Shown here: positions 17,236 through 59,000 of the stretch, in pieces
Layout: every line of letters begins with the position of its first letter
How positions within the stretch are numbered: the first letter of the stretch is position 1
Assembly (NCBI GenBank): GCA_001724265.1
Contig: MEDY01000233.1
Coordinates: 1-64,000 of the forward strand
Length of the DNA: 64,000 nt
DNA from: Rhizaria sp. SCN 62-66
Taxonomy: Eukaryota
Direction of reading: 5' to 3'
Translations under genes and position numbers: made by a program
Notes under the pieces: generated by a model
What the model was told of the DNA's origin: nothing
The model's input: only the letters and a program-made list of their open reading frames with translations
Database searches by the model: none

Positions 17236-17615
17236 TCACTACTGGGCGGAGTTGACGCTGGCGCTCGCCGGCCGGCTGCCCTGCTGCATCTGCATCTTGG
17301 CACGCAGCGCAACCAGAGCGCGGGCCACGTGCGCGGGCGTCGGCGCGTTGCTGCCACCATCACCAGCGCTCATAGCCGGCTTGTTACCGCCATTATCATC
17401 ACTGCTACTGCTAAACGATTTGGCATTGTTGCTCGAGAGAGACAGCAGAGGCAGCAGCGGCGCGCGGGCCCTGGTGTGCGACTACGACTGTGCAGTGTTG
17501 CTGTTGTTGCTAGAGGGCGAGAGCAGAGAGAGCGGCCTCGATACCGCAGGCAGCGAGCGCGCGCCGTTGCTTGAGAACGCACTCTGTGCGACAGAGCTAG
17601 TCTTAATAGCCTTCG

Positions 17616-17665
<50 letters not shown>

Positions 17666-20600
17666 CCCGTGCTCGTGCTCATGCTCATGCCCGCGTTGGC
17701 CTTCAAGGTGCCGCTGCTGCCCGCGGCGCTGCCATTAGTGAGAGTGACCGTGTTTTCACGGTCGGCGACGAGACTGCGGCGGGCGGCGCTGAAGCCGCGG
17801 ACACGCGTGTTAGCGCCAGTGCCGACATTCGCATTCGCACCCTCAGCTGCACTGGGATGAGCTATGGGATGAGCGGGCTTGTCAGTCGTGTCTTTGGGAG
17901 TAAACGCGTTGGAGAAGGACGTGTTGGTGTTGGTGCTCGCGGAGTTGAGAGCGGTGCTGTCGCTGCAATGCCGCGCGTGCATCGGCGTGCCGTAAAGGGA
18001 CGGGGCCGCGCTGCTCGCGTTCAAGTTAGGCCGCGCGCCCACGGTCGACACAGCGAGAGGCGGCGGCGAGCCCAAGCGGGTGCCGAAGGGCGTCAGCGAA
18101 GCCAACGCGTTGGCACCATCACTGCTGCTGCCACTGCTGCCGAAGCTACCGCTGCCGAAGCTACCGCTGCCACTGCTGCTGCTGCTGCTGCTGAAGCTGC
18201 TGCTGCTACTAATAAGCGGATTTGTGCTAGCAGTCAGAGGTGAGCGCAGAGAAGCCAAGGGGGCCAGCGGTGCCAGCGGAGTGCGCAGAGGCTTCACGTC
18301 TAAGGGGCGAGCGTCTAAGGGTCTCGATTCTAAGGGTCGTTCAACTAAAGGCGTCAGCGTGAGCTTCTTCAAGTGCGACGGCGCCTGTGATGGACGCTGT
18401 CGCTGTCGCGACCGTACGTCATAGTCGTGGGCATGGTCATTGCCGTCGTCGTTGTGGGCATAAATGCTGATGTTCAGAGGCTCACGGGGGGTGCGGGGCA
18501 GGGAAGCGCCCAAGAACGGCGACTGCTTCTGCTGCTGTTGTTGCAGAGCAAGACGCGCGGCGGCAGGAGTCGCGCGCGCGGGCGTTGTGCGCAGCGCCGA
18601 CCGGCCTGGAGCCGGGGTCGGCGGCACAGCAGTGACGGCAACCTGAGCAGCAGCAGCAACAGGAGCAACAGGAGCAGGGGCAAAGTCAAAGCTTGCGTCG
18701 GCGCCAAGGCCAGGGCCCACTGCGGCCGAGGCGGGGCGCGAGCTGAGGCCCACACCGGCGACTGGACCCGCGGCGGAGGTGGGGCGCGAACTGGGTCGCG
18801 AGCGCGCAATCGCGGCCATGGAGGGCGACAGGCCCACGATCATCTCGCTGCTCGCGGCCGCTGCGCTGTTGCTGCTCATCACGGTCACAGGCTTTGCGGC
18901 CTCTGCGGCTACCGCGGACGCGAGAGGCGCTGCAATCGGCTCTAAACCAAACCCGCTACGCGACTTAACTTCCGCGCCGTGCGGCTTAACATTCAAGCCT
19001 TTAAGCACGAAGCGCTCCTCGAGACTGGAGTCGTCGCCCAACGCCAACGCCAGCCGCCGCGCCCCAGCCTCGGCCGCCGCGGCTTCAGCCTCAGCCTCAG
19101 TTTGAGTTGTTGACTTCGCGGCCTCGGGGGACTGCGCGCGCGACTGAGCCGGCGACAGCAACTGCGCCCGCGAGTGCGCCTGCAATCGCGACTGTGAGCG
19201 AGAGCGCGACTGCGAGCGCGCCCGGTCAGCGACGGCCTCGGTCAGCTCGTCTTTGAGCTGCTGGAAGCGGGTGAACTGGTCGCGCGCCGCCGCGCCGCGG
19301 GCCGCGCTGGCGTTGAGTGCAGCGGCGACACTGGCGTTAAGAGCGGCCGCGGAGCTCGTGTTGAGGGCGCCGCTGACGTTGAGTGCGCTGGCGTTGAGCG
19401 CGCTGGCGTTGAGGGCGCTGGAGCTCGCGTTCAGAGCAGCAGGCGTGCTGGTGTTGAGAGCTAGGGCAGCGGTCGCGGACGGGGAAAACACGGGCGCAGG
19501 CGAGGAGGCCCGAGAGGAACCGTGAGAAGCAGCAGTTGCGGAAGCAGCAGCCGTCGACAAACTCGAGAATGCAGAAGCGTTTGCGTTTGTGCGTGACTGC
19601 TGCTGCTTGGGTGCCGGTGTGAAGGCAAAATCAAGCCGCCCCTGGGGGAAATCAAGCCGCGCCTGCGAAAAGTCGCGCCGCACGGGGGAGAAGTCAAGCT
19701 TGCCGTGGTTGAAGTCAAGCCGCGTCTGATCGAAGTCTAGTCGCGTCTGCAAAAAGCTCAGCTTATTCTCGCCACCGGCACTCGCAACAGGCGTGACGTT
19801 ATTGTAGGCACCGTGGCGACTGCCGCTGTGCAGCGCGTGTAAGGGCCCCCACTGGATCACCGGTGAGGGAGACGGCGCCAGCGCAAAACCAGCACCATCA
19901 GCATCAGCACCAGCAGCACCAGCAGCAGCACTCTGAACACTCTGAGCACTTGTCGCATTCGCGGTCAAACCGCAATTTCTGCTACTGTAAGTGGGAGATG
20001 GGCAGGCTGAAGCGTTTAGAGACGCGTTGAGCACCGTCGTCAGCGGCAGGCACAGCATGGAACCGTCCAAGTTATTATCGGCAGCAGCAGTCGCAGCGGC
20101 CTCAGCCTCAGCGGCGGTGGCGGCGGCGGCGGCAGCGAGCAGCAGCGCAGCCTCGGACGCCGCAGCCTTAATCAAGGTTGTCTCAGCCTCGGCCTTGGCT
20201 GCGGTGGCGGCAGCGCGGCGACTGCGAGTGAAAGCGTGGGTGCGCTTGTGAGAGTGAGACTGTGAGAGCAAAGCAGAGACCTGCGCAGAGTTCGGGGAAT
20301 ACGCGTCGCCAGCCTCGCTGCTTGTGTTGTCGGTCTCGTTCTGCGTGTGCGAGTGTGACAGCGACAGCGGCGACGACGACGACGCTGACGATGACGAAAA
20401 GGACGCCAAGCCGGCCGCGGCGCGGGAGGCCGCCAGCCGCCGCTGCCGCTCGGTCACGGAGAGAAACAACGACGCCTCAGCCTCCGCCTCGGACTCCGCG
20501 TCAGTCAATCCCGCATTCTCTAAAGTCGCAGTCTCAGCCTTCGCTTGGGCCTCAGCGTCTGAGGCCGAGTTAGACTTGTTGTTGATGCTGTTGTTGTTCA

Positions 20601-22446
20601 ACGCTGCGTCTGTGTGCGTGATAACGGCCGCCGCGGTGATGACTGATGCTGGCGGCAGCGGCAGCGGCAGCGGCAGCAGCGGCACTCTGACTGGCGTTGA
20701 TGATGTTGTCTGCAGGCGCCGTGACTGGCTGTTGATGCTGCGAATAGTCTCAGAACCGGCAGCAACAGTTTTTCCGTCATCATTGGCATTGCGGCCGGAA
20801 GCCTTCTCATCACAGGCGCTGCCTTTGCAGTCGGCGTGAGAGTCCGCAAGCGAACGGCTGTGGGCGTGGCTGTGGATGCTGCGGACAGGCGTCTCAAACT
20901 GTTGCTGCTGCTGTAAACGCTGATTATCGCTGTCGCTGTGAGCGTCGCTGCTGCTGGTGGTGTTGGCGCTGCTGCTACTGCTGCTGCTGTTGCTGTTGTT
21001 GTTGTTGTCCACGTCGGTGAATGTGAGGCTGCGCACGATGGCAGAGATCGGCTGCTCACAGTCACCCTGCTGCTCACGGTCACTTTGCTGCTCACCCTGC
21101 TCATCACGGTTGCCCTGCGGCAGCGGCTGTTCGCACTCCTCTGCGTCAGCGAAAGCAGAGGCAAAGCCGAAGGCCGACACCGGGACAGACACAACAGGGA
21201 CAAAAGCAGGGACGGACTTAGGGCCGTGTGACGCGCGCGGCTGCGACTGGAACAGTTGCTTTACTTTGCACTGGCAAGAGCACTTACAAGCGACTGCATT
21301 GCTGTTCTTGCTTTTGTTCTTGCGAGTGCTCCTCTTAACAGCGCTAGCAGGGTTGCTCTTAGTCTCGCCCTTGCGCGTTGACTGACCGCTGCTGTCGCCG
21401 CTGTCATCATCAACAGAAGAAACAGCATCATTCTCAGATGTGTCTGCGTCAGAGCCGCTCTGCGAGGCCTCGGATTCGGACTCAGCCTCGGCCTCGGCTG
21501 CGGCAATTATGCTCTCGAAGAACGACGCTTCGCCCGCTCTCACGCTGGCGCCCTCCTCCGGCACTGCCTCTTGTCGCGACAGTCCCTCATGTAACTGCAT
21601 ATCCTCCTCCTGCTGATGTGGCTGTTGCTGTGTCTCCGGACGCTGCGCCTCGGGCCGGCCGGTCTGGCCCCCCGCAGCATTGGCGTCGCCGCCATCAATA
21701 GCCACCCCCGCCTCGTCGCGGTTGACGCTGCGACGACTGGAGTTGTTGATGCTGGTGTTCACTTGTGAGGCCGAGAATGAGGTCGCGCGGCGGAAGTTAA
21801 GCCGCTTCTCGGCGGCCCCGAAGCGCGCGGGCCAAAGCACGCCGTTGAGCAGCACGGCACCGCTAACGTCGCCGACGGGGGGACTTGCGAGCGCGCTGTC
21901 AGCAGCAGCAGCAGCGACGACAACGGAGGGGCGAACCTTAGAGCCTGTTTGGGGGCCTGTGTGGGAGCTTTTCTTGCTGCTCTTAGTCTGCTTGCTGCGG
22001 CTGGTCGTAGCGGCGCCAGCGTTGCGAGCGCAAGTGCAGCCGCAAGAAGGCGCAGCACTCGCAGAGGGGCGCTTAACGCCGCTGCTGCTGCCATTGCGGC
22101 TCGCGCGGTGAGCGTGCCGACTCTGGTTATTGTTGTTAGTGACGTTGTTGCCGCTGTCAACGTTGTCGGCAAATGCGACGCCGCTCAGACCCGTCAGCAC
22201 GTTAGCGTCGTCATCAAACTCATGTGCCGCGGTTTCGTTGCGGTAGCTAGACCCGCAGTCGGCATTGGTCGCAGCGGAGACGGAGGTGGAGAGAGAGGCG
22301 GAGTCGGCAGCGACAGACACAAACGGGACTGGGCTGGTGGCGAAAAGCTCGGGATGCTCGTTGAGATACGCGTAGCTGCCGTCATAATCAGGAAACAAGG
22401 TGTCCGCGGCACAAGCAGTTGTGGGACGAGAGGCGCCGCACCCCAT
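17236..22446 (-). CDS. Large low-complexity, probably disordered protein with N-terminal MGCGAS acylation motif. 1736 aa if TAG is read as sense, 1654 aa if stopped at 17482.
   Basis: Single long ORF from ATG 22446. The frame continues past TAG 17484-17482 (TAQS*SHTRARAPLLPLLSLSSNN...ALVALRAKMQMQQGSRPASASVNSAQ*) to TAG-TGA at 17241-17236, after which the sequence turns AT-rich. Confidence 0.75.
17617..17661 (-). repeat. (AGC)15 trinucleotide run encoding poly-Ser
   Basis: Direct reading of gctgctgct... on the + strand, in frame with the 17236-22446 ORF. Confidence 0.85.
19624..19749 (-). repeat. Six degenerate 21-nt tandem repeats encoding xxRLDFx heptads
   Basis: QTRLDFD QTRLDFN HGKLDFS PVRRDFS QARLDFP QGRLDFA; recurrent aa(g/a)tcaagc on the + strand at 21-nt spacing. 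Confidence 0.85.
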
Positions 22447-23283
22447 TGTAGGATGGTTCGGCGAGCGAAGCGCGGGCGATGATGAAGCGAAAAGGTCTAA
22501 CGGCTATCAACAAGTGGCAAGGCAGAAAGTGTGAGTGACCAAACCTAATTGAGGCTTTTACAAAATATTATTAAAAATACAAGTAATTTCTTCATTTTTG
22601 TTATCCGAACACTTAGTTTCAATTCATTTTGACGTTCCAGATCGTGGTATTATTGTTATTTAAAGTGCCGCTTCGTCAAAGTCAGATCGCGAGCAACGGC
22701 TACTGGCAAACACAAGGCCTCAGAAACAGACGTCAATATCGTCATACCACCTACTTCATAACCTGTGATGCATCTACATTGCTTTGCACCGTGCTTTTCA
22801 AACTGATTTTTTAAAATGAAAACAAAAGTGCGTTGTTTCACGACTGCAACAGCCTTCGGCGTGTGTCGCCACAGCGACCCCACTCCCACTCAGCCAAATC
22901 TGTTCTCTCCTATCAGCGCTACAAGACATTTGCTGATCCACGCGTAGCAGCTGTGTCTGATATTAATATGATGCCCTTAATATGCCATCGCTGTGTCAGC
23001 GACGAAATTGTTGATCAAAGCTGGTATTCGCGGCGTTTCTTCGCCTGGAAGGCGATGTGGTCGTGTTGTGGTGTTTTGAATAGCACCCCTCTCTTTATGA
23101 TCTCTATCTTTTGTCGAATCAAAAATGAGCGCACGATGGCATGTACTAGACTTCTTTCCATTACCCACTCTAACCACTCTCTCTCGGTACCCATTCTTCC
23201 TCCCTTCAACCTATCTTCCACAGTGTTGCAGCCCTCGCTCACGAAGTAGAAAAGCACTCTCCAAGCACGCCATTGCTTTACTG

Positions 23284-36469: not shown

Positions 36470-37216
36470 ATGTCTTCCCTGCGCGCCCCCGAGCATCCGT
36501 TCCCGTCGCTGTCGTCGCTCTCCGCGCCCGCCCAGGCGCTGCTGGCGGCGCACTCGTGGCCCGGAGAGCCTACGGGCACGGTGTTCCTCGACCGCGCGCA
36601 CCTCATCGAGGCCGCGGGCGACTGGGAGTTCGCCGCCGAGCTGCTGACGGACATGCTGGCCGAGCTGGCCACGGCGCTGCCCGCGATCGAGGACGTGGCC
36701 TTCCTGGGCGGCAACTGCGACTCGACGCTCGACACCTCAATGCCCACCTCGGTGCGCGCGCTCTCGCAGGCCGACGCCGCCGCGCTGGGCAAGACCGCGC
36801 ACGGGCTCAAGGGCGCCGCGCTCAACCTCGGCCTGCAGCAGTGCGCGCGCGCCGCGCAGGGCGTCGAGCTCATCGGCAAGACCCTTGCCGAGCGTGCCGC
36901 CGCCGCGGGAGGGCAGTGGGAGAGTATTGACCAGGGTACGCCAAGACAGACCAAAACATTGAATGAGCTCTTTATGCCGAAGATTAGTATCTAGTGTTGT
37001 TAATTTGAGATATAGCTATATATTATGTATATATTTGCAATATATCTCACTGTAATGTTTTATCTTGTTTTCTCACCATTTATGTTCTCTCGTATTCGCT
37101 CTTTATTCCTCAAATCGCCAGAGCTCTTCTCGCTGCTGCCGCCTCTGTGCGCCCGCCTGCGCGCGCTGCACATCGACCTGCAGACACTCGTCGAGGCCGG
37201 CTTCCAGAACGAGTGA
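36470..37216 (+). CDS. Stand-alone histidine phosphotransfer (HPt, Ypd1/AHP-like) protein (~186 aa). Exons 36470-36935, 37122-37216.
   Basis: LDRAHLIEAAGDWEFAAELLTDMLAEL helix, then phospho-acceptor motif AHGLKGAALNLGLQQCARAAQGVE. Phase-1 intron 36936-37121; TGA stop. Confidence 0.85.
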
Positions 37217-38474: not shown

Positions 38475-38475
38475 G

Positions 38476-38547
38476 CTCTCTGACCGGGAATTGAACCCGG
38501 GTCTCCTCCGTGACAGGGAGGAATACTAGCCACTATACTATCAGAGA
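38476..38547 (-). tRNA. tRNA-Asp(GUC), 72 nt, intronless
   Basis: Minus strand TCTCTGATAGTATAGTGGCTAGTATTCCTCCCTGTCACGGAGGAGACCCGGGTTCAATTCCCGGTCAGAGAG. Acceptor stem TCTCTGA/TCAGAGA, A-box TAGTATAGTGG, anticodon stem CCTCC/GGAGG with loop CT-GTC-AC, B-box GGTTCAATTCC, discriminator G. Confidence 0.95.
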
Positions 38548-42200: not shown

Positions 42201-45200
42201 GGTGTTTCTGAGCTGCTGAGCTCTGAGACGTACCGTAACGTGCGTCCGCCAATCGTGCAGTGGGAGAAGTCGCCGCTACCGTCACCCCTTTACAGCGCGT
42301 CGCCCCTGATTAACACGCTGACCGTTATCTATGTCACTGCTGACCGGTGGGAGGATCCCAATCTGAACTTTTTAGTCCCAAGCCTCTGGACACTATCATC
42401 AGCATGCACAGTCACTTACACTTGGCTGCTTAAGTCAGGCAGCGCCTTGCAGACTCTCACTAACACGCGTACAATTGCGCAGGTCTCCGCAGCCGCCATG
42501 ACCGCCAGCACACAATTTCAAAACGACAAGTCCGGCCTGCCAACCGTTGCTGGCACACTTAATGCGTTCAATAGCTTCCGGCTGCACATGAAGCTGATGT
42601 GTACTGTCGTGTCAACGCCCCATACGCAGTTGTCACTGCAGTTTGGTCTGGATGCCACTCAACGTGTGTTTGTGCCGCTTGCACGCGTCCCGTGGGCCGC
42701 ACTTAAGGTCTTTGCGCACACAGACTACTCTCGATTCGACCCTGTAACGGGCACAAAGTCTGAGGTCGCAAAGCTTCTCACACCCATAGAGCTCAGGGTC
42801 TGCGTTGCGGGCAACTATTACGAGGACTACACGCAGCGTTGGGCGCAGGAAATTGCAACACAAGGCTTGAACGCGGCATATGACGCGATTTTTGTTGTTA
42901 CGCCGCCTTCATCTACAATGTCTCTAATTGCGAACTCAAGTTATACGCACACCACTTCTGCCACCGCTGTTGTCTACGCACTGCCCCCACTAACCGGCAC
43001 ACTAGCCGCAAACTGGCTTGATATGGATTTGCAGCCGCGCATTGAGTTTCGCGGTTCTGGTTGGATCCATCTTGCGGTGGCGGTGAACATTTCCTCAAGT
43101 GTGACAAACTTGCTCGAAACAAGTATCTTCATCCAGGCTACATGCTCGCTCGCTCTTTTTACCACTGCGCTTGCGACGACTACAGGCACACCTGTTGTTG
43201 CGGTGCCGTCGCCCGCAGGCTCCGGCGACGAGTGGCCCGTAGGCTCAACCATCACGGCAAGTTGTGACACTGGTTACTCCTTTGACGGCACCATCTCAAC
43301 CATAGGCGATTACAGTTTCACGTGTAGTAGCTTTAACGTTTGGACTTCCACGATAGGCACACTTAGCACCTGCGTGCGCGTGCCAGTATGTCTCCAAAAG
43401 TCGTTCGGTGCGGGCGTAGTAACTCCGACAATGCAGGATATGGATAGTCTTGATGCTATAACTACCGCCAGCTGCGATGATGGCTACACGGCGCGCGATG
43501 ATCTTCCGTCATCCGCGATCTACAAGTGCACGCAGACGGGTTCTGATGAGTACAATTGGAGCCTTGACGTCAATGAGATTGCAATTGTGTGTGTTCCACA
43601 CTGCATTCCAATTGCAGACTATGACCCAAACATTGACACAGTTATCTACTCCGGCAACGGAGAGCCTGCACTGTACAACGTTGCTACGGTTACAAGCTGT
43701 GCAACAGGTTTTATGATAAACCCAGTGCTATTGGCGCTGCAGTGTGAGCTGGATCAGCTCATAAACTCTGCGTGGTCTCAGCCCGCATCGTACATAGCTG
43801 ACAGCGTGTGTCTTCGTGTTGCTTGTCCGGTGCCCTTTGTCGACAGTACAGGCACCGTGTACACGTACACGTTCAACTCCACCACGCTGACCGGCACACC
43901 CACAGCCTTTGCCGAGACCACTGCGGCTGCTGTCTCGTGTCTGCCCGAGTATGAACTTCCCACGGGCGGCGTCTACAGCACAATCTGCGACGTTGCAGGC
44001 TGGGCTGACGCCGCACTCACAATGTGCGTGCCCAAGACGTGCCCCGAGTTCCCGCTCACGGGCTACAGCAACGTCGTTGCCTCAGGAACAACATCTGTGG
44101 TTGGTGATGAGTTCAGACCGGTCTGCGAATAGCACTGGGTTGCGCCCAACGATGACAAGGCCGTGTACACATGTGAGCTCAAGGGCGATCTTTCAGCTGA
44201 CTGGCGCGAAAACGCCACTGTAACGCCGCCAGTGTGTGTTGAAGGATGTGCGGCTCTGGAAGTGCCCATTGGTGGGAATTGGCAGTTCATAAGCGGTTAC
44301 AGCAGCGGCACGGTTCCAACAGTTGGCGCGACGGCCAACATTGTTTGCGACTACGGGTACACACTTGACCCACCGCTCGCGGTCGCGCCGCCCGTTTGTG
44401 TTGACAATGGGGATGGTACGCGTTTGTGGGACCGCGATGGTAGCAATGAGTGCGTTGAGGCATGTCCACAGGCGCCGCCGCAGTCCAACACACTTTTTGG
44501 CGTGTGGATCAACGATGCCACGAGTGCTGTGATGAATTGGTCTGTTGCAGCACCAGTTGGCACCCAAGTCATTCTGACGTGCTTGCCAGGCTACGCAGTC
44601 AACGGTATTGACGGTGACTATACGATTCAAAGCACGTGCCTGCAGGACAAGACGTGGAGCACAGCTAACAGTGTGGATGTATGCGAGCCCCGTACCTGCC
44701 CGCTCTACGCGGCAGACGCGTCATTTGAGTCATTCACCACAGTGCTTGTGCTTGGTGCCACCGCAAGTGTGGTTTGTGCAACTAACTTTATTTCGCTCTC
44801 GGAACACGCGAGTGCAATGGTTGAATGCCGCGTTAGTTCCGCGGACAATGTGACAATGGAAAACGTTGTCACCAACGTCGAAGGCCTGCCTACTTGCGTG
44901 CCGCAGTGCCCTGCGGTGACAATGGGGTCTAACTGGCTGAACATGAGCTATTCCACCGGCACTTACGCAACCGAGGGTGCTGTCCTTAATATCTCCTGCA
45001 AAAGCTCGTTTGTGCTTGATCCCATGCTGGATACGTATCAATGTTCCATGGTCTCTCCAGGTGTCGTTGATTGGAGCCCCTCAGGCATCTCGAACATTGA
45101 CCCTTGTATCGCGGGCTGTTCACCACCAGTGCGCGCAAGCACAACAGTGGTTGAATATTACCAGAGCGGCAGTTCTGACCCGGTCACTCTCGAAGGCTCA

Positions 45201-48200
45201 GGCACCTATGTGCCCATTGACACCGAGGTTAAATTACGTTGTCTGTCGGGCTTTGCAGTTGATTCTGTTGCTGGTGCAGGCAACTACACTGCGGTTTGTA
45301 CTTCGCTCGGCGTTGGTCTTGGCGCAGAATGGTCAGATGAGTCTGCAGTCCCTGCTTGTGCTCCCACGGCGTGCGCTGCACTTGAAGCCAACACCACAGC
45401 AAGCAATACCATTGCCGTTCAAACAGGGTACGTGGTAGGGCAGACGGCGGAGTATGTGTGCGCGCCCGACATGTTCCGCGTGAGTGGTAACTCCAAGCGA
45501 AGCTGCTCTATTCCAGCTGACTACAATGGGGCGGAATGGGAACTGCTCTATCCACTCGAAGGCGAACTTGAGTGTATGCCGCAGTGCGACGCGCTTGTGC
45601 CGACAAATGCATGGAGCTTCATTTCGTATAGTGTCGCCGAAGTAGGAGACCCACGACTCCCAAACATTGTGGCAACGCTCTCGTGCGGTCCTGAACATCA
45701 ATTAAGCCACGATGCACCAGAGAAGCTCACATGTATTGTGCCAGACCCTGTCAACGCGCCTTTAATTGTGGCCTGGTCTGCGGTTGTTGACACTGCGACA
45801 TGGCTTGCCGGTGCATGCCAACCCACGTGTCTTGGCGCGCCGTCGTCATTGGAAGCCCCAGGATCCCAGTTTGTCTTTACGTACTCTTCAGACGGCTTGC
45901 CTTCGCCCGTGAGCGAGCGCTATACTGTGGGTGTTGTCGCGGAGCTGACGTGCGACTTGGGCTACGACGTCAATGGTGAAATGGGCACGAAGATTGCTGA
46001 TACAATCTGCGTTGATGGCTCCCCACCAACATGGATTGACGAGCTCGCGTGTGTTCCGCGCACGTGCAATCCGTTTAGTCCACCTACAGGAACCCTGACG
46101 GATGCTGACCAAGTCATTCCTTACACACTTGGAATGTCAGTAACGGTTACGTGTGATGATGGGTACAAGCCTTTGATGTCCGGACATAACGGAATATCAA
46201 CTGCAGTGTGTGCGGTTGACACGTCAAGCGAAGAGCTTTACTGGGCGTATCCCGAGATTGGGGTGTTTCCCTGCGTGGCTGTGTGCCCCACGCTAACCAT
46301 GCAATCGACATGGGACTGGGTTGATTATGAGACTTAGTACGCCGACGGTGTGCTCAACTTTGGCTCGGTTGCCCTCATTACGTGCGCAGAAAACTATACT
46401 TTGCACGCAGATTTGATAGCCGCGCCGCCCACGTGCATCTTTAATGACGACCCCGAGACAAATCCTCCTGAAGCCATCTGGTCGCGAGACAACGTGTGGC
46501 TTGACCAGAACGCGTGCGTTCTTAACGGCTGCACGGAATCTCCTGTTGCTGGAGCTAACGTACAGTCTCCTGGTGAATGGTTTTACACGCTTGCTGGGAA
46601 CGCTTATGTCGCTCCAGTCGCTCCTGACAATCTGTTTTTCGCTGGCGTTGTCGCAACACTCCAATGTCAGCCCGGTTACGAGGCATCAAAGCACGAAGAT
46701 GCTGCCGTATCGACTTCCGAATGCTTTGTTGACTTCTCTCAGTCTCCAGCGGTGGGTGTGTGGAGCCCCACGGCAACGTGCAAAAACTCTATCTGTGCAG
46801 ATCCAGCGTTACAAGTGCAGCAAAACCATCTTGTGTACACCACCGAGACTGAGAACTTGGTGGCCTTACGTACCACAGGCTTGCTAAGCTTTGATAGCGT
46901 TGTTGTTGAATGCGACGTTGGTTACGCGAGTGCGGCTGCGTCAAAGTTGAGCTACACGTGTCAGCCTAACATTGACGATCCTGATCAGCTCGAGTGGGTT
47001 ACTATGGTAAATGCTGAGGTGCCTGTCTGCGAGGTCGCAGGCTGTCTCCCAATTGAGAGCTTGCTGCCTGGTTATATCTTCGTTGCCAGCTACTCGCAGC
47101 CACAGGACAACGAAACGCGCTATCCCGTCGGCACAGTCATTTCTTTTTCATGCGCAAGTCCAATGGTGCCTGCACCCGCGCCAACTGCAGTGACATGCAT
47201 CAGTGACGCAGCTGCGCCAGGGGGGTCTCGTTGGAGCGCGCAGCCGAGTGAGATGCTGTCGCTCTCATGCGCAAATAGGTGCATAATTGCTGAGCTTGGC
47301 GGCTTTGCAAACGCGGAACTTCTAGATACAAGCAACACAGTCTTGAACCGCGACGTAGTGGAGATATACGCAAGCGAGCAGAACGTATATACCGTACGCT
47401 GCAACACGGGCTACGCCTTTGCGGCAGATCCTACGGCTGGTGTTTGGAGCAGCACTGTGCGCTGTCAAAGCACCGGGTGGGAGGCTGTAACAGGCCTTGC
47501 ACAAGTCGCAGATTGTGCGCCACAGCTGTGCCCTCAGCTGACGACGGATCCGACGCTGACTGCAAACGTGACATATCCAGCGGTGTATCTTGTTGAGGCA
47601 TCATATACGTGTACCGAGAATTTTTACGACACAAGTATTCGTGCTGGAGCCGCCGTGCCATTCAAGTGTGACGTGGTAGATCCTGTGGCTAATATTGCTG
47701 CGTGGATACAGCAGGACGCTGGTCCACTACCTACGTGTGTGCCACAGTGTCCGCTTCTTGCGTTCTCTGATGCACTCTTATTGCCATCTTACAGCAGTGC
47801 TTCGCGAACCGACGGCACGACTATGGCGCTTTCTTGCAACGCGCCTTTCTTAATCCGCAACTCAATTGCTGAGCTTAATATTGTCTGTGTTATCACTAAC
47901 GATGTTGCGGTGTGGACCCCAAACCCGCAGCAGCACGTCAATGTCAGCACTGCGTGCCTTAATTTGTGCGCGTTGTCTGGCCTCCCAAGCGCAGCCGGAC
48001 TTGAATGGGACGCTCTTGCTCTTGAGAATGATGATAAGCCAGGGTACTTTGCTACTGATGATGGCTTTATGGCTTCTTGCAGTGACACTACTCAGGCTCT
48101 TAAGGGAAGCACTAAAGGCACGTTTGAAATGACCTCGACAGTGCTTTGCGCCGGTTATCCTGCTGCCTGGGCCTTTACAAGCGCCAGTCCTACAATTGAG

Positions 48201-51200
48201 TATCCACCTTCCTGCGCAACCGTTGTTTGCAGCAGCTTACCCGACGGATTCGCTCCGATCACAGCACTGCCGGACCCCGCCATAATGACAACAGAGGTTG
48301 AGTTTGAGTGTGGGAGTGCGTACGAGCTCGTCAATGGGACCACCGCAAAAAGCGAGAAGTATACTTGCGACATTGTCTCTGGAACTCCACAGTGGCGTCG
48401 CTCCGACGTCTCTGCACCGGTGCTGCAATGCATTGCTTCGGCGCCTTGTGGCACCTTTACAGTCGACAACGGGACTGTGGCACTTGCAAATGGTGGCACA
48501 CTCGCGGATATCACGTGCGACATTGGCTTCACCAACTCTGGCGCGACGACGCGTTCTTGCGACACTGTCTCGGGGCTTTGGATGGAGTCTCTACCAACGT
48601 GTGTGCTTAACGCGGGCTGCAATGGGCCAGTCATAATCGATCCCCGCTTTCCTACAGGAGCGGGTTACTGGGTTGACAACGGCGACGACACTGCTATGTT
48701 CACATGCGCGGTTGAATACGAGTTTAGTCATAACTACGCCCTGCAGTCAGTGAGCTTGTCTTGCAGTGGCCCTAACTGGTGGGACTCAATCCCGACATGC
48801 GTTTTCTCACCTGTTTGCGCTTCATTCCCCTACAGCATTGTACCACTCACTCTAAAAGCTACTAACGGCTCTGATCTGGTGGCGTCGGCTGCGTTGCAGC
48901 CTCTTGGTGCGACTGCAAGAGCTGACTGCTCCACAGTCTCGGGCACTGTGCAAGCGTATCCCTCTATTGCTACCATAGGAACCGATGGCAAGCTTGCCCA
49001 GTGCACTCGCGACAGCGTGAATCCAACTGTGGCTGCGTGGGCTGCAACTGCACTTGCGTGTCTCATTGCTCCCGAAGTCATAAGTACAACAGTTACCGTG
49101 GATACATCCAGTGTCACTATTGAGATTGAATTTTCTGCTCCAACGTCGTGCCCTGTGCACACTCCGGGCCACGACCCTACAGCTGCGGCAACACTTCTAT
49201 GCTCGGCAGTTCTGTTAAACGTTGCATCACTGGGCACTGACCCGCTGTGCTCATGGCCGAATGAAACAAAATTCCGCATCCTACTGGGAGATAACTTTGA
49301 GTACACATTAAGCACTTCGCTGACAGTGCGTAGTGGTGTTGTCAAGCTGGCCTTGAGTGCTGCCGTAGCTTTAGTTCCTGGCTCAAGCGCAAGCAGTTTT
49401 AACGCAAACGCAATGCCCGCAGTGGCTAATGACGTTGTTGCGCCTAAGCCCGCTGCACCGATTGCTGCCGCACCGGTTCTTGTGGCGATGACATCAAACT
49501 CCAGCGTGGCCGCCTGCAAGACCGCGACAATCTCGATCTCCAGCGCGACCACGGGTGGTGCTGGCGGTGCACTAACGTACAAGTACGTGCTTACTTCGAC
49601 CACTGCAACAGGGTTCGCTCCCGCGCTTCCTTCAGGCTTTAGTGCGCAAACTAGCGTGACGTTAGACTTTGCTAGTGTTTATATCGGCGAACACGTTGTC
49701 ATGGTTACCGCGCATGATTGGCTTGGTCAAGAAAGCTCGCAAACTCTCACAATTGTCTCATTCGCAGACACAATTTCGTTACAAGCAAACATCCTTGGCG
49801 ACGTATACACACGCACCCTTGCTTCTAGCGCGCCGTTGCCGCTAACTGCTACGTTACGCGCATTGTCTAATTGCGGCGACAGTTCTGCAATTGCTGTAAC
49901 ACATTCATGGGCCACTGGTACAACGCTATTGAGCTCACAACTGTCGTTAATCATACCCGCGTACACGTTCGTTGCAGGATCTGTTTCTGTTCTTACTTAC
50001 ACTGCTACATTATCAGCTAATCCCATCGTTAAAGCTGAATTCAATGTGACAATAACAGTAAACAGTCTTGCCCCACGTGTGACAATGACCGCGCTAGCTT
50101 CAGAACGTGCTCCTCTTGTTTCAGTGACATCACAAACTGCGCTCGCATCTAGTGTGGGCGCATACACTGCTGCCAACGCTGTTACTCTTGTTACCACTTC
50201 AATTGCATCGCCACAGCGGCTTATCGCTACGATTTCACCGCAACCACTTGCGTTTTCAACTACAGGCACACTGGATCGCAACACTAACAAAGACGTTGTG
50301 GCCTACACGTGGTCTTGTTACCGCACTGCGCAAAGCTACTCTACCAACACGTGGGATGCAACTGATTGCCCCAATGAGATTACCAGTGTGCTTGCAGGTG
50401 GCACACCACCTGAGATTCCAGCCAGTGCCATTGCGCTGTTGGCGCGCAACGACAACACTGAGCTCCGTGCTGTGCTTGTTGTCGCTCTCACGGTTACCTC
50501 AAGTGGCGCAGCGCCTTTGCGCGCGCGCACTGTGGCTCGGTTTGAAATCCTGCCAGCACTGGAGTTTTTCACGCGGCCCACAGTTATTCTACCGGTTGAG
50601 ACCGTAGCCACAGTGCTGCACATGTCGCCCCTTGTACCATTGCGTTTTGCGGCGAACGCAGCGGGGCCCAATCGCACTTACGCGCTGCTGTGGGCTTGTG
50701 AAAGCGGAAATATTAATGTTTCATCTTCCGGCACCCTTGCTTCGCCGCTAACGGGAGCTAATCTTGTCGTATCTGCTGCCGCGCTGCAACCCAACCAAAC
50801 GTATTCGTTCCGCGTATCAATTTTTGTCACTGCAGTAACAGGCCCAGCGTTTCCAAACGCACTTCCGCCGTCTGCAGCCGTAACAGCGGCTGCCAACCCC
50901 GCCCGTGCACCTGGCCCCTTACCGGGCGAGTTTACCAGCGCCGTTATAACTGTGCACACATCTGCTTTGCCATTTGGCGGTGTGTGTGCACAAGTAGATC
51001 AGTCAAACGACGCCGTGACAGGAGCCCGTGCCGTGGTGCGCTGTACTGGTTGGGCTGCGGAAATAACTGAGTTGCCCCTGAGGTACCGTTTCCTGCGCGC
51101 TGATACGGGCTTAATGCTTGCTGCCACAGACGTTGCGCCCGTTGCTGAGCTTACGCTCCTGGAAGGCACCACTGCCATTAACGTCGAGGTTATCAGCTCT

Positions 51201-54200
51201 CTTGGCGTTGCTGTCACAGTTTCTGTGAATGTAACGATTGCGCCCGCCGCGGCCCCAACACTGCCAGCGTTGCTGGCTGAGGCTGTAAATACTGTGCAAA
51301 ATAAAGATGCGTGGGGTTTTGTCCAAGCCGCCGCCTCTGCAACTTTGCTGTTGAATGACAGCGCTACAGTTAACGCGAGCACGAGCACAGCAGCGCGGAT
51401 GCAGATTTTTGCTCTGCTGACTGACCCTACTGTATCTGCGCTATTGCTTGACGCGGAGACTGCGGATCGCGATAGCGTGACAAACAACAGTGATGTTGAT
51501 GATGACAGTGAAGATGTTCTTTTGCGACGAAGCCAAAGCACGTTGGAAACTGGCGAAGCCTCGTTGGGCTCAGCTGTGGCCGTGCAGTTGCTTTCAACTC
51601 TTGTGCGCTCTGGAGTGTTTATCAACGACAACGATAATGCCAGCGGCGGCCACATGTCCTTTATCGACGCCACACTTGCATTAGACTTAAGTTCACGCCA
51701 TGTGCAGACAATGTTGCTCCGGGAGCGTCTTGTTGGTACCACAACGTTGTCTAGCCTTGTTGCTCTTGTTGACGCTGCTGTACAGATTTTGTATCTCAAG
51801 CTGTCTCTTAACGGCAAAAGTTCTAATCACTTGGTTCCCGAACTGCCGTTTATGCGCGCACTTAGCAACAACAACACTGGCAGTTCAGAAAGTGTCGCGT
51901 CGATTTTGTCTGCACGCACCGATGTTGTCGTAGCTGCTGCGCTGCAAGACGCGGTTGCCGGTGAGGATCCTGCGACTATGATAAGTGGTGATCTTGCTTA
52001 TGTTGCTTTACGCTTACTTGCTCAAGGTGATTCTGACGTCGAAATCACGCTTCCGCAAGATGAGACTGACAGCGAGGGCTCCGGTAGTGAGTCTTTAGTC
52101 AATATTGCCGGCATTAGCAGTGATAGCCACAGCGTCACTATTTCTTCACTGACGAGCAGTGTTGCCCGTGCTCACACTGTGCTACAAAGGCTGCGCTCTA
52201 ACCAACCAGCACATATCTTTGCAACTAAGGCAAACACGGCTATGAAATCTAAGGGCGTACGCGTGCCTGGTGCGCTGGTGAAGACTATTGGCGGCAGTTC
52301 AGGTGGCAAACTTGACGCTGGCATTTCTGCTCTGCTCCGCGCTTCTTTGCTATCGTCGGATTCTCTTGAGAACAACGACACGCGGTTGCCTGATACTGAG
52401 GCCGGCGAGCCGGCTGCGGCGCCACTCAAGGGCATGTTTGCAGGCTCGGTTGGCTTAACACTTTTTGACGCGAGTGGCGCTGAGATAAAAATATCAAACA
52501 CTGGTGTTAGCATTGTCGTCAGCAACGGCACTGCACCCGCGCCTATCTCGGCTTCGGAGGCCGACAGGGTCTTTATAGTGACAATCCCACACGAACAAAC
52601 GCTGCCTGTAAACTACACCGCAACGTGCCAGTTTCTCGATGAAGTCACAAACATGTGGAGCCAGCGCGGCTGTGCGGTGGCTGAGGCAACGTCAGAGTAC
52701 ACAATTTGCAAATGCAATCACTTGACCATGTTTTCCGTCCGTCTATCACCCAAATACTTTGCACCTAGGGTTCTCTCGCTCAACGTAAAGTCTTTTACAA
52801 GCATTTCATGGAACCAAATTTCCCGCAACCCCGCGCCTCTAATTTCACTTTGTGTGTGGCTTGTGCTATTTTTGTTGCTCGTTTGGTTTGGCGCGCGCAT
52901 TGACCGCAAATACGACAAAAAGGGCATGTACAAGCTGTTGAGCGAGTGGCACCCATCGTCACAAATTCTCCTTACTAAAGCTGAGGAGTATGGCGTTGCG
53001 GCCAACGCATCGTCCTTTGCTTTCTTAAAGCGACGCTTTTGGCGCGTATTTCGCCGTGACCACACATGGCTTTGCCTGTGGTTGCGCCCGACAACGGATG
53101 ATTTTGGCTCTCAATCGCGCGGCGCAACCTCAGCGCTCACAGTTCTTATTGCGCTTGCTATTGCGGCGACTTTCTTTGGCTCACAAGAACGAGAGGCCGC
53201 AATGACAATTTCACTAATTACAACTGCAATTACGTTCCCCATTGGCAAGTTTTTTCAGCTTGTGTTTGAATTCTCAGACTCAGACCGGCTGAAACGTTTT
53301 ATTTACTACTACGCTGAGCATCTTGCCTTTCTTCACATTTATGGCTACTCCTCAGACAACTTCTTTACACCTGAACAGACCGCGCGGCTGTTGGCGATGC
53401 CGCAAGTTGACATCCAAATGGTGCGTGACCTCGTCCCTGAGCTGGGCCGCTGGCGTGAAAGCGATGATGAGGCTGCCGAGCGCTACTCTTTTGCAATGCG
53501 CAGCAAGAGTATCAACACAAAATCAACAGAGATCAACGACACTGCTGACCAAACGCATATGTCGCGGCAGCCGGAGCCAATGATGCGCGTACCAAACACG
53601 TATAGCACACACCGCCAGCTTGAGCGTGACAATAAGATGTTGCGCGTGCTACTACGGTCAACGTTAACCCTTGATGCCGCTGACGTTGTCAATCATCACC
53701 GTCATCGGCCTTTTTACACGCGTCTGCCGCGAGGTCTTCGCATGTTTGGCATTGTGTCTGTAATGTTAATTGGACTAGCGTGCGTAATGCTGGTAATGGT
53801 AATGGGAATGGAGATGGACCGATCTGTGGGATCGACGGCTGTGCGAGATTGGCTTCTTTCTACTGCCGGTTCCGTTGTCACTGATGCATTTTTATCTGGC
53901 CCCATTATGGCGTTCATTCGCTCTACTATCATCTACTATGCTAAGTACATGCTACTCGGCCGATGCTTCACTCAGCCCTGGAAACGTTACGATTGCATGT
54001 CAAAGCTTGCCTCTTCGCGTCGCCTCTCAATCACCGCCATTAATGTGTCGTATCTTGAGGTCATGGGAGTCAAGGCCGAGCCACGGCTCCAATTCGACAC
54101 ACCCGAAGGCCTGACATGCAATTCAGATGATGAGCGTGCTGCCACCGTAGCAAAAGACACTAAAAAGAGCTCTTATGAGTGCAGCATGAGCGGGAACTGC

Positions 54201-54812
54201 TTCAAGCTTGCACGTGATAATTCACACATGGAACTCTTACATACTGACTTGCACTTGCAACCACGCGTGCATTCTCTTGTTGCGTCTACAATCACGACTC
54301 AGTTACCCAATGACTGCGCAAGACTGGCATCTTCCGGCAGCGTATTTTCTGTCACAGCATCTGGTAAATTCAATGAATCTAACTCTTTCTCCACTGGTGC
54401 TGACTTTGACTTCGCTGCGGATGTCACTGATGCGACTCTAGCAAGCACAATTGCTCTAAGTGTTACTTGTGCTCCTGATCAATCTTTTGCAAACATCCCA
54501 GATGAATTGACGCTACCAGATCAAATTTCCCCGGCAAATGTTGTGATTGCTAGCGCTATGACTGCAATATCACAAGACAACGAGCAAAACGACCCCGAGT
54601 CGTGCAGTCGCCATCACATTGCATACGGCGTCGATGTGACGGCTGTGTCGCACTCCGACGACAGCGATGACGATGAAGATAACCACATGGCTGATTCTGC
54701 TGCTCAAATCCGGTACTATGACAATGACGCTTTGTGGGATGGGGACGATGACTACGGCCGGTCTTCAGGGGACGAAATCTCGGTCAGCCATCTGCGCGTC
54801 CACTTTCGCTGA
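39297..54812 (+). CDS. Giant polycystin-1/PKDREJ-like receptor (~5053 aa): signal peptide, Sushi/CCP array, REJ-like module, GPS, multi-pass TM region. Exons 39297-39411, 39605-40131, 40293-54812; in-frame TAG at 39859, 44130, 46335.
   Basis: Exon 1 encodes a signal peptide (FFATWALLLATLSS...VNA); two GTACGT..CAG introns keep frame. ORF-track pieces 40317, 44163 and 46350 share one frame, separated only by single TAGs. Repeated C..P...GxxxxxxCxxGY...C....W.....C units at ~43200-49070; REJ-like PFGGVC...CTGW...LPLRYRF; GPS CQFLDEVTNMWSQRGC...CKCNHLTMF (52626-52733); PKD1-type HTWLCLWLRP..DFGSQSR; TGA stop. Confidence 0.85.
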
Positions 54813-56063
54813 GCACTGAAATACGCCGTGTCGCATGACTTGCGATGAAAATAAGTTTCTTCACAACTAGTCGGATCTATTTTAATATGTTTCTTTTATT
54901 TTTAATTGTTTTTATTACTTTCACCACGATTGAATACTCTTACATGTATCTTCATTTTCGTATGAACCATGTTGCTCATGAGCGACCTATTTGCAAAGAC
55001 GCATTACGAGGGTTTGTCGTTCTTGAATCACCATACTAGTAATCATTATGTCAATATCTTCTCATTAATCAGTGTCCGCAACGCTTGCATTAGCGCGTGA
55101 TCGTACACTTCACTCTATCTTGTCGTTTGCGTCGTCGATGCTGTGGTTCTGTTTGTGAACAGTCAGTCACTGATTGCAAAAGAATCAGATCACGAACACG
55201 CCTGCGCTTGCTCTTCGAACTCGTCCAGTCTACTTCTGTGACATACTATGTTTTCTATAGACACTATGACGAGTTTCTCTTTAAAGGAACATTCCCATAA
55301 TTAGCGGTGCGTTTTATCTTAGACGCTATCAAGAATAGCGACTGCCCGCTTACTACTTTAAACCACTTCGCTTCAATAAACAAAAGCAACGTTTGACAAA
55401 AGATATATTGGAATTCACTTAAATATAAGGTTTAAAAAGTGATCACACAACCCGGAAGTTGAGATACGTTCATATTTATTAAAATAAGCATGCATTTGAA
55501 TGCGTGAGAACAATACGTCACTTATTTGCGACGTAGGAGCTGATGAAAAAACGCGTTTTAGTGTCTATACAGAGTGATGCTCTCCTGATGACGGCGTTTC
55601 GCGCATCACCTTCAAACAAAACAGATGAAGATTGGCTGTGATGGCGGATGAGCCGTGGGTGTGAGAAAAAGAAAACAATCAAAAAGTCGATAAATCAATG
55701 AAAATGCAGCCCATATGAACAAGTTAACGTGATTATGTGGGTTGAAAAAGAAAACAAACACAATGTAACGACGAAGCAGTAAACTTGTTAAGTTTTAGGT
55801 AGTGATACTGGAGCATATGAACTCGTGGCTTGAGATAAGTTGAGACTCGCACACTTAGCAAAAGTGGCACAACTTGGCAACTTGGTGAGAGATAATACGA
55901 CGGCAAGTTTAAATACATAAGTACATCAAAACCTAAAACATTGCTAAAAATAAAACAAATAATAACATAAAGTACGTGACGTGTTACGAAAACGCAAAAA
56001 AAAAGAAAAGAAGCAAAAACAACAACAAAAAACAAAAACACAACAACGGCCGATTCGCAGTGT

Positions 56064-59000
56064 TTACTGATTCGGTTGTTCACGCCGTTGCTGCCACTCA
56101 CGCTTCTGTTGCTGCTTGCGTAGTTTCTGCAGCCTAGACAAATCAGCCATTGCTAGCGGTGTCTGGCCTTCGCCACTTTGTCCGGAAGACCCTGAGCTGG
56201 TGCCCGAATGCGTAGCTGAGGGACTCGTGGGCGACAAGCTCGCAGTTGACGCGCTAACAGTCGTCGCAGATGCAGACGCAGAAGAGCTACTGGGTGACGC
56301 GCGCGACATTTGCGCGTTCACACGCACGTCGACCCCGCCCACGGTCATCACGCTAGAGCCGCGTAGTCTACCGGAAACGGGGCCTCTGACGGGTGCTGTC
56401 GTCGCAGAAGACGCGGCAGACTCAACAGACACGGCAGTGTGTTTAGATTGAGGTGATGAGACAGAGTCTGTGTCTTGCGAGACAGGTGAGGAGGAAGAAA
56501 TTTTTAAGCCGATGAACGCCTGCGTGTTTGCGGACGTAGCAGGTTTAGCTGTTTCAGCCACAGCGTAAGAGCAAATACCTGAGTGAGTGGTGGCGTTCTG
56601 TAGTGCCGTCAGTGCGGTTTGAGCCTCAGCGTCAATGTGCGGCTGCGTCGCCTCAAGCTCGCGCTCAACATCCACAATGTGCACAATGTGCTGCGAGGGA
56701 GGCTCGGCCTGGTACAGTGGAGGAAGCTGTTGTGAGATGTCGTCGGGGCTGTTGCTATCACCACCGGCAAGGTGAGAAAATCCTCTAATCACAATCGGCT
56801 AAGACTCCAACTGCGACTGCAGCTGGGAAAGTAACTTCACACGAGGAGACGGTACCATTTGCTGGTGCTGTTGCTCTGTCGCAGTCTCACCTTTAACAAG
56901 AGCATGGTCCGTTACAACGGGCTCAGTGATAGAAGCAGAACAGTGTGATTGAGGAATGACAGGAACAAACCCTAGATTCGCGTTTGACTCAGGGCCACCG
57001 CTAGAAGCAGCATTCAAATTGTTGTCGCTACCACTGAGTCCGCCTTCCTGGGCTTGCTGGCGCAGAAGCAGATCAATAAGCTGGATGCGAAGCTGCTGCT
57101 GCGGGCTCAACGTCGGCATCGGCTGCTGCTGTTGCACTCGCTGCAGTTGATAAAGCTGTTGTTGTTGTTGATGATAATACATCTGTTGTTGTTGCTGTTG
57201 TTTTTGTTGTTGTAGTTGATCTAGCTGTTGAAGGATCACCTGCTGCTGCACGAACTGTGCTGCGATGGCGTTGTATTGCGCCAGGTAATGCTGCATCTGA
57301 TGGTCTGTCGGCTGACCGTTTCTCTCATCCATAAACGACGTTAGTGGTGGCGGCATTGGAAATGGCGTGCCACCGTTCATCGCTCCATCTGCAGGAGCGT
57401 CGCCGGGTCCCCACGCCTGCGCGTACGGGCCGGGGCTACTGCCGCCTGGAGCGACGCCGGAAATAGCATGTATCACAGCATCGTTATTCGTGATATTATT
57501 GTTGCTGGGGTTCTGTTCTGCGATCGAACCAAGAGGAACGGGAGCAGCACCGCCGCCTGACTTGATGCGAGACCGGCTCCAGGACCTGGCCACACCACGA
57601 CGTGCGCCAACGTTGTTTGATCCAGCGGCGCGCCCACGTGCATCAACGCCGCCGTTAACAAGCTTATTGCTACCGGGCAGCCGGCGCGAGTCCGCGCCGG
57701 TCCCCAGCAGTGTCGCACGCAAGGCGGACGGAGACGGTGCCTCGGGGTCATCCAGCTCCAGCCCTGAAAAGGAGAGCAGTGGCAGCGGCGCAAAAGCGGG
57801 CACGGTTTGGACAACGCGCGCGGTCGTTTGTGAGAGCTTCAGTGGCGCCCAGCCCCATGAAGCCGTGTTAGGGTCAGTTGCCGTGGCCTTGGCGCTAGAC
57901 AACGACGCCTTGTTCCCCGAACCTGTGCCTGCGCCTGTCGCCACGGTTGTTCCCACACCTGCGCCAGAACTGAGGCGGTCACGCGCGCAACGCGGCGCGG
58001 GAAGACGGCGGCTCGCCGCGTGGACAACCTTGGTGCAGGTGGGGTTGCCGTTCGTGTCCACAGCGCTGCGGCTCGAGCGCGAAGAGCTGCTGTCGCTGCC
58101 GCTGTGACGCGCGTTAGGATTGTCGAGCACACGGACCTTCCAAAGAACCTCCTCTGCGTTGTTGGGACCAACGTTGCCCGTGGTCGTGACGGTGCCGCGC
58201 GTGCGGCCGCGCACACGCATCGCCCGCAGCTGCGCCAGCACGCGCTCGCGCGCAAGCAGGATCACGGCGCGGCGGCGCTCGCGCATCTCGCGGACGATCT
58301 CGCGGCGCCGGCGGCCGTGGAGCCGCATGCGGATGTGCGCAGCGCAGCCCGCAAAGACCGCGACAGTCGACAGCAGCAGTGGCGTGGCGACAAACCACTC
58401 GATCACAATGCCGATGAGTGCGCCGAGACCCCACATCCACACGCCCGAAGAGCCATCGCGCACGGAAAGGCGCACAGAGAACACAAGTGCGAGCAGGATA
58501 GCCACAACGATGACAAACGTGACAAAAGTCGTCTGCAACACCAACGTCGGCAATAGTGCCCATATAAAGCAGCTGTCGCGCTGCAGCTTCTGTGCCGAAG
58601 GTGTATCAGAGAGAGTAGTCGTAGTTTCCTCTTCTGGCGTAGGTGCCCTGGCGTTAGAAAAACCACGCTGCCTCTGCTGCGTCGCAGAGGATCCACTGCC
58701 GCCAGCGTGCTGCTGCGTGGACCGATGGGTATCACGCTGCTGGCGAGTGCGAGCACGGCAACAGAAACGCTTATTGCCACTGCGCCGGCTGGGACGTGGT
58801 GATGCTGGGGTTGGGGTCGGAACAGCCGACGTGCTTGCGCTGCTGCTGTGCGCAAGGATCTCATTGGCGCTCGTAGAGGATACCATTGTGGCGCGGGCAT
58901 CGGCAGCAAAATCATCCTCATGATCCTCCTGGCAGTCCTGAGCCGACGTTGAAGCAGAAACAGAGAAGGCTGCACTCTCGTTCGTGTAAGGTTTCGGGTC

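Follow-up and report, generated by a model that had tools for sequence, protein, structure and literature searches.

The 64,000-nucleotide stretch of contig MEDY01000233.1 analysed here (the window) is nuclear DNA of a GC-rich, phylogenetically unplaced eukaryote from bioreactor and wastewater metagenomes, and its GC content ranges from 52 to 73% in 4-kb steps. Several of its genes contain TAG codons in frame, and we propose that UAG is very probably translated as sense in this organism, with UAA and UGA remaining as terminators. Seven TAGs had been located by the first-pass annotation, and each of them reads TAG on re-inspection at its position and on its strand; six of the seven are in frame with coding-like sequence on either side, and four genes are affected. 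The window encodes two giant membrane proteins that are paralogs and share a GPS motif; many Sushi repeats are present in one of them. The features of their genes are as follows.

39601-40131, forward strand: upstream exon of giant gene 1, with an uncertain 5' limit; it joins the main open reading frame in frame and holds the TAG at 39859-39861.
39859-39861, forward strand: in-frame TAG in the upstream exon, a probable sense codon, followed by C.
40132-40292, forward strand: spliceosomal intron of 161 nt, AT-rich, GTACGT...CAG, with both junctions at codon boundaries.
40293-54812, forward strand: main exon of giant gene 1, with Sushi repeats, a GPS motif and transmembrane segments, ending with TGA at 54810-54812.
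44130-44132, forward strand: in-frame TAG within a Sushi repeat (VCE-TAG-HWV), followed by C.
46335-46337, forward strand: in-frame TAG within a Sushi repeat (DYET-TAG-YADG), followed by T.
56064-63998, reverse strand: giant gene 2, a distant paralog with a weak GPS motif and transmembrane segments, the tail of which is long and disordered; the window stops short of the 5' end of the gene.
56799-56801, reverse strand: in-frame TAG of giant gene 2, located in its tail (LES-TAG-PIV), followed by C; CAG in a second strain (run X2, below).

The two giant genes are arranged tail to tail (40293-54812 on the forward strand and 56064-63998 on the reverse strand), and their products are distantly paralogous membrane proteins with Sushi repeats and/or the GPS motif, transmembrane segments and a YYAE..AF motif common to both.

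The frame of giant gene 1 that spans 40212-54812 comprises 4,866 codons and is interrupted solely by the TAGs at 44130-44132 and 46335-46337; the other five frames over this interval contain dozens of stops. Neither TAA nor TGA occurs among the 4,866 codons, in agreement with the earlier observation that these two codons do not interrupt any of the gene models. Pfam matches were obtained for Sushi (1e-26) and GPS (1e-08), and both TAGs lie between conserved cysteines of Sushi repeats, the pattern of which continues through them without added residues. In public protein sets, giant gene 1 appears as three pieces that are cut exactly at these two TAGs. An HMMER scan of 1.84 billion representatives returned the window's own three pieces, four weak Sushi matches and one distant homolog, P0006 (4,189 residues), which is the only relative of giant gene 1 apart from those pieces. 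Residues 523-1597 of P0006 align as a single stretch to residues 12-1091 of the query, across both TAGs, with 30% identity, and further downstream the identity is 37% over 3,008 aligned residues. The C-termini also agree (...VSVSHLRVFFH in P0006 and ...ISVSHLRVHFR in the window, where TGA follows). P0006 is without the ~640 N-terminal residues of giant gene 1 and has no signal-peptide-like start, though its contig is 305 kb long, and an intron or an in-frame stop may have truncated its gene call. A word-index search with the 734-residue middle piece of giant gene 1 among longer proteins found no homolog, a cluster look-up for a fragment of the gene gave only start-site variants of that fragment, and a scan of Joint Genome Institute (JGI) metagenomes with the giant-gene alignment gave no match.

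Contigs of four sequencing runs (X2-X5) were compared with the window over 39800-56900 (17.1 kb). X2, for which the records give no library type, belongs to a different study, and X5 is a polyA metatranscriptome from the same study as X2 that carries four of X2's variants. X3 and X4 gave identical contigs without any listed difference from the window, and those of them that bridge position 44130 keep the TAG. Neither indels nor joints were found across the compared region in the run contigs. Of the 40 listed differences between X2 and the window, 33 lie within the reading frame of giant gene 1, and 22 of these are synonymous and 11 are not, against an expected synonymous share of 0.30 calculated from the observed mutation spectrum (p=1.2e-5). 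The excess persists past the first TAG of the main exon (14 synonymous versus 11 non-synonymous, p=0.006) and past the second (13 versus 8, p=0.0025). Therefore, the part of giant gene 1 downstream of its TAGs is kept as protein-coding sequence in the same frame by purifying selection. TAG 46335 is also bridged, with 0 differences, by a polyA RNA contig (X5 record 29, 46252-46453), so that one of the seven sites is covered by RNA; the RNA contigs reach 15 of 30 bins, and the gaps carry no inference. Coding sequence that is real, expressed and under selective constraint contains UAG codons in this window, where nothing requires UAG to be a stop.

In giant gene 2, reading through the TAG at 56801 takes the gene to TAA at 56066-56064. 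The 244 codons after this TAG are open (shuffle P=5e-5), with 6-19 stops in each of the other five frames, and their codon usage matches that of the body of the gene. At position 56801, X2 has A>G on the forward strand, which gives CAG where the window has TAG. A homology search that used the tail of this gene as query found no homolog. An X5 RNA contig matches the window in this tail up to 56115 and is then followed by 255 letters unlike the window, in a Ser/Ala-rich repeat; the mismatch is probably a difference in repeat length between strains.

Gene ends and the bases that follow them were also compared with the in-frame TAGs. With TAG taken as sense, 13 ends were modelled (TAA, 7; TGA, 6) instead of the 14 counted before (TAA, 8; TGA, 6), and those that do not depend on the meaning of TAG number 11 (TAA, 6; TGA, 5; TAG, 0) and not 12; the absence of TAG from both sets was borne out. 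The ends are at the following positions.

TAA ends independent of TAG: 7237, 8577, 11505, 13305, 16594 and 32891, all TAA-GC.
TGA ends independent of TAG: 4140, 25779, 33270, 37214 and 54810.
Ends reached if TAG is read through: TGA at 17236 (gene G, below) and TAA at 56064 (giant gene 2).

The sample is small, and at a TAG share of 20-25% among stops, 0 of 11 has a P of ~0.04-0.09. G follows 10 of the 13 true stops (TGA-G at 17236, 25779, 37214 and 54810), and C or T follows all seven TAGs, the background share of pyrimidines at codon position 1 being 0.40. Apart from the tandem TAG at 17241, the codons after the TAGs are CAC, TAC, CCG, TCG, CAT and TGC. The first-pass annotation had described these contexts as sharing no readthrough motif, which is correct in that none is of the CAR-YYA type, a readthrough motif, and incorrect in that they are not featureless, given the pyrimidine at the base after the codon (+4) in 7/7. 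All of the six in-frame stops are TAG, while the expected share of TAG among random nonsense changes is 0.50 (p=0.016), and UAG is used about 6 times in ~15,600 codons, or ~1 per 2,400.

Two genes served as controls for termination.

15387-16596, forward strand: prohibitin (PHB) gene with three exons and no in-frame TAG, ending TAA-GC.
5449-7239, forward strand: SDR-SCP2 enzyme, identified with Pfam, with no in-frame TAG, ending ...AKL TAA-GC.

The spliced prohibitin is identical to P0014, a transcript-derived protein of 281 residues from a 1,270-nt Logan contig, including the C-terminus and with the exception of one residue near the N-terminus (by eye, I in the window and M in P0014). P0015, the protein of a sister species, is 94% identical to the prohibitin of the window. 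The two prohibitin introns are of the GT-AG type, with donors GTACGT and GTATGT, and the donor of the giant gene 1 intron at 40132-40292 is of the same type as the transcript-verified prohibitin intron. The TAA end of the prohibitin gene equals the end of P0014 and fits P0015, and the TGA end of giant gene 1 coincides with the C-terminus of P0006. UAA and UGA still terminate translation in this organism.

The remaining TAGs belong to two genes on the reverse strand, a low-complexity gene (G) and a DOT1-like methyltransferase gene (J).

17236-22446, reverse strand: gene G, a low-complexity protein that starts MGCGAS and ends ...CAG TAG TGA at 17244-17236.
17482-17484, reverse strand: in-frame TAG of gene G, a probable sense codon, followed by T.
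17239-17241, reverse strand: TAG of gene G immediately before a TGA-G terminator; it may be the final sense codon or begin a tandem stop, and is uninformative.
35251-35534, reverse strand: exon 2 of gene J, with GTACGT donors at 35664 and 35250 and the acceptor ACAG at 35535.
35329-35331, reverse strand: in-frame TAG in exon 2 of gene J, a probable sense codon, followed by T; the exon model is a prediction from the sequence.

The 80 codons after TAG 17484 score as coding (-3.86 in frame 0, versus -4.66 and -4.60), and true 3' untranslated regions score ~-5 with no frame preference. The openness of this stretch is by itself not significant (shuffle P=0.13), and gene G becomes AT-rich only past the TAG-TGA at 17241-17236. 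Because G at +4 is present at 10 of the 13 true stops and absent at 17484 and 56801, these two TAGs do not look like terminators of this organism; the TGA after 17241 does. The start of gene G lies at 22446-22420 on the reverse strand, and the remainder is a low-complexity protein of 1,700 residues; we take MGCGAS to resemble an N-myristoylation/palmitoylation start. In gene J, coding signal flanks TAG 35331 on both sides, the intron after exon 2 has a GC content of 0.31, and the DOT1 match lies in a later exon (E=1.1e-4, below the Pfam cut-off). A GTTAGT donor that would include TAG 35331 was considered and dropped in favour of the GTACGT model. Around TAG 39859 of giant gene 1, frame-specific coding signal was found at 39601-39750 and 39862-40049, in an exon predicted from the letters of the window. 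The TAG at 36992 is not an in-frame case, being intronic in the Hpt gene that ends with TGA at 37214. A Pfam search of the sequence downstream of the TAGs gave no domain match. Taken by site, TAGs 44130 and 46335 are certain in-frame codons, the case for 56801 is strong, and 17484, 35331 and 39859 are probable.

Several observations weigh against the translation of UAG. No tRNA with the anticodon CUA was found in the 64-kb window, a result that does not extend to the remainder of the genome, and no UAG is alignable to a conserved residue. UAG does not occur in the conserved prohibitin, SDR-SCP2 and MBOAT genes, or in the housekeeping genes with a high GC content at third codon positions (GC3). 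In the main frame of giant gene 1 it is rare, with 2 in 4,866 codons versus 60 in the gene's two other sense frames, and it is far denser in the rhizarian exLh, to which we return below, than in the window (PMC5304391). The evidence from the sequencing runs has limits of its own. X3 and X4 are not independent, since they share the same contigs, and X3 is from the same study as the likely source of the window; of the 61 differences between X2 and the window, 21 are unlisted, so that the listing is incomplete. The X2 contig that starts at 44121 keeps TAG 44130 only 9 letters from its end and does not bridge it, the X2 contig over 46335 has four unlisted differences, any of which could fall on the TAG, and the evidence from X5 consists of contigs, with DNA in an RNA library being possible.

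We considered whether the TAGs could be nonsense alleles that are tolerated under a standard code, with genes G and giant gene 2 ending at 17484 and 56801, giant gene 1 decaying or truncated, and TAGs 35331 and 39859 outside coding sequence, and we regard this as unlikely. Under the standard code, a TAG share of two in 13 ends would be nothing unusual, and therefore the tally of ends is not by itself decisive. The TAG/CAG difference at 56801 resembles a nonsense polymorphism, the X2 differences downstream of this site (one synonymous and three not) reveal no constraint on the tail of giant gene 2, and TAG, with its share of 0.50, is the commonest nonsense product expected. The giant genes are weakly biased in codon usage (GC3 of 0.55 versus 0.8-0.86 elsewhere), and the conflict with the standard code would then be limited to giant gene 1 and to the unverified models of gene J and of the upstream exon. 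A decaying giant gene 1, however, does not agree with the purifying selection past both of its TAGs (14:11, p=0.006; 13:8, p=0.0025), the lack of indels between strains, the 0 TAA/TGA in 4,866 codons or the colinearity with P0006 up to a conserved C-terminus. TAG is also the only type of in-frame stop (6/6), and both TAGs of giant gene 1 are found in the runs of the second strain (44130 near the end of an X2 contig and 46335 in X5). Moreover, the sequence past 17484 and 56801 is coding-like, unlike true untranslated regions, and both sites lack the +4 G.

Leaky or programmed readthrough, in which the code is unchanged and UAG is a stop often read by near-cognate tRNAs (Gln, Tyr or Lys), appears improbable to us. 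A pyrimidine after a stop is a weak termination context in eukaryotes, and the C or T after every TAG, the rarity of UAG and the tails of gene G and giant gene 2, which would be C-terminal extensions like those of known readthrough genes, are all consistent with it. Giant gene 1, however, would need two or three such events in succession, inside folded domains and far from the gene end, and their yields would multiply to near nothing unless each event were efficient, while the contexts have only the +4 pyrimidine in common and none of them is of the CAR-YYA type. Efficient reading at each UAG would amount to sense decoding.

That the TAGs are artefacts that do not reach the ribosome, owing to mistakes in sequencing or assembly, overlooked introns or editing of the RNA, is very improbable, because the low depth (~4-9 per contig), the AG at the end of every TAG, which makes each a possible acceptor, and the CAG at 56801 in one run stand against the recurrence of the TAGs in separate assemblies (ENA/Logan proteins with the same cut points and the X3/X4 contigs), the absence of joints in 17.1 kb, the Sushi pattern that continues unbroken through both TAGs with no extra residues, flanks that are GC-rich like exons where real introns are AT-rich with CAG acceptors, and the retention of TAG 46335 in an RNA contig.

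The core of the first-pass reading, with UAG as sense and UAA and UGA as stops, is thus supported by the Sushi domains that continue across two TAGs, the colinear homolog, the selection past the TAGs, the RNA contig, the 0 of 11 TAG ends and the +4 context. A full reassignment of UAG across the genome is likely rather than demonstrated from 64 kb.

As to the amino acid, the first-pass annotation had proposed Gln from the Q-rich surroundings of some TAGs, an argument that proved weak; the one real pointer is the TAG/CAG strain difference at 56801. Because of this difference, together with precedent, Gln is favoured, and if UAG is sense we consider Gln its probable meaning, with room for doubt. 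P0006 gives no pointer to the amino acid: its residue opposite TAG 44130 is Ala, in a region of 29% local identity, and 46335 is not placeable in that alignment. The Sushi repeats were also considered as an internal guide to the amino acid and rejected, the equivalent positions being variable (T/P/D and S/G/T/V).

In the mechanism that we propose, the ribosome would insert an amino acid at UAG, and UAA and UGA would end genes. UAG would be decoded by a dedicated tRNA with the anticodon CUA, most likely a derivative of tRNA-Gln because CUG to CUA is one change, and the recognition of UAG by eRF1 would be weakened. The release factor may still compete at UAG, and the change may be young or incomplete, because UAG is rare and always stands before a pyrimidine, while true stops usually stand before G. 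A dual meaning of UAG, of the kind found in Condylostoma or Amoebophrya sp. Kv, may be considered: there are 0 TAG terminators in 13 ends, yet the sense TAGs avoid the +4 G of true stops, and this avoidance hints at remaining competition at UAG. We tentatively suggest, as a possibility that we hold to be rather doubtful, an early and ambiguous stage of a change from stop to Gln, in which UAG is translated only before a pyrimidine, termination is by UAA or UGA plus G, and UAG has spread mainly into long, weakly biased genes.

The window has further features. MBOAT acyltransferase, Hpt protein, DOT1-like methyltransferase and several low-complexity proteins are encoded in addition to the genes treated above, together with the sole tRNA of the window.

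38475-38547, reverse strand: tRNA-Asp(GTC).

In the gene at 5449-7239 on the forward strand, an SDR domain is fused to SCP2 and the protein terminates in AKL, which is presumably a C-terminus of the peroxisomal targeting type. The SDR-SCP2 query found one 3.7-kb contig in JGI metagenomes that is 100% identical to positions 6945-10680 of the window and adds nothing new. Matching sequence comes from bioreactor, wastewater and activated-sludge runs, among which X6-X15 contribute small shares. The best named relatives of the prohibitin have 50-61% identity and are spread across many supergroups (Aplanochytrium, Pigoraptor, Cantina, Mantamonas, Paulinella, Vitrella, Porphyridium and others), which gives no placement. 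Among GTDB genomes, the best 80 of 223 prohibitin matches are bacterial or archaeal homologs only, the top one being 39% identical, and an Atlas search returned bacterial Band_7 clusters.

Introns were modelled at 15482-15684, 16242-16402, ~36936-37120, 35664-35535, 35250-~35098 and 40132-40292. They are 130-202 nt long and AT- or pyrimidine-rich, with GC-rich exons around them; the donors are GTACGT, GTATGT or GTACGC, and the acceptor is mostly CAG, one model requiring ATAG. Codon bias is split along the window, with a GC3 of 0.70-0.86 in the housekeeping and low-complexity genes (1-37000) versus ~0.55 in the giant GPS genes (39600-64000). We do not take this split as a sign of a chimeric assembly, because intron donors and stop contexts are alike in both parts. 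At 51640-51672, the depth rises to ~302 in X3 and X4, and loose ends flank the stretch; these ~33 nt are common to some abundant other sequence in the samples. The GT-AG introns of 130-202 nt, the GC3 of up to 0.86 and the long multi-gene DNA give the window an appearance unlike that of ciliate DNA.

Nuclear codes with a reassignment of UAG alone are known from few lineages, namely Iotanema, exLh, Scotinosphaera and certain phyllopharyngean ciliates (PMC5304391, PMC11687900). In the fornicate Iotanema spirale, UAG encodes Gln, UAA is the dominant stop and a tRNA-Gln(CUA), one step from CUG, is predicted (PMC5304391). The likeness to the present case is that UAG alone is changed, termination is by a stop codon different from UAG and Gln is the likely meaning in both. 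The UAGs of Iotanema, however, align to conserved Gln in many conserved genes according to that account (PMC5304391), whereas here they are rare and lie outside conserved genes. The source organism of the window also differs in being GC-rich, intron-bearing and of an aerobic type (prohibitin, peroxisomal-type SDR-SCP2), and nothing ties it to fornicates. The same account gives Leu as the meaning of UAG in exLh, with 384 UAG in 71 genes (PMC5304391); exLh resembles our case as a UAG-only reassignment in a non-ciliate protist in which UAG is scarcer in highly expressed genes, and differs in its UAG density, while no pointer to Leu was found here.

Among phyllopharyngean ciliates, UAG is reported as Leu in three TARA metagenome-assembled genomes (MAGs), whereas Hartmannula sinica and Trochilia petrani read it as Gln; a tRNA(CUA) was found in two MAGs, and for Scotinosphaera UAG is reported as Ser (PMC11687900). 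These lineages are like ours in that UAG alone is changed, UAA is the main stop and the change was inferred from genome or MAG data. In Amoebophrya sp. ex Karlodinium veneficum, stop codons are translated by context with the help of suppressor tRNAs, which are thought to compete with a still-working eRF1 (PMC12005148). In-frame stops are kept there in DNA and RNA, also in large genes (dynein heavy chains), as they are here; unlike in the window, where the change is limited to TAG and no gene end was seen to use it, all three stops and about half of the genes are involved (PMC12005148). By analogy, this competition may possibly serve as a model for the +4 context in the window. Listings from literature searches showed no earlier account of such a code in a protist from wastewater.

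The lineage of the window, unplaced and not a ciliate, would add one more UAG-only member to this group, one that uses the codon far more sparsely. At a practical level, gene callers split the genes of this organism at TAG, and eukaryotic bins from wastewater need a check of the code. UAG and UAA almost always change meaning together, and a further independent case of UAG alone, in a GC-rich non-ciliate, would be a data point on how such changes begin. The very low usage of UAG and the contrast in the following base suggest that tRNA and release factor are still in competition at this stage, and if the early-stage reading is true, this organism would show the 'ambiguous intermediate' route of code change in a living lineage.

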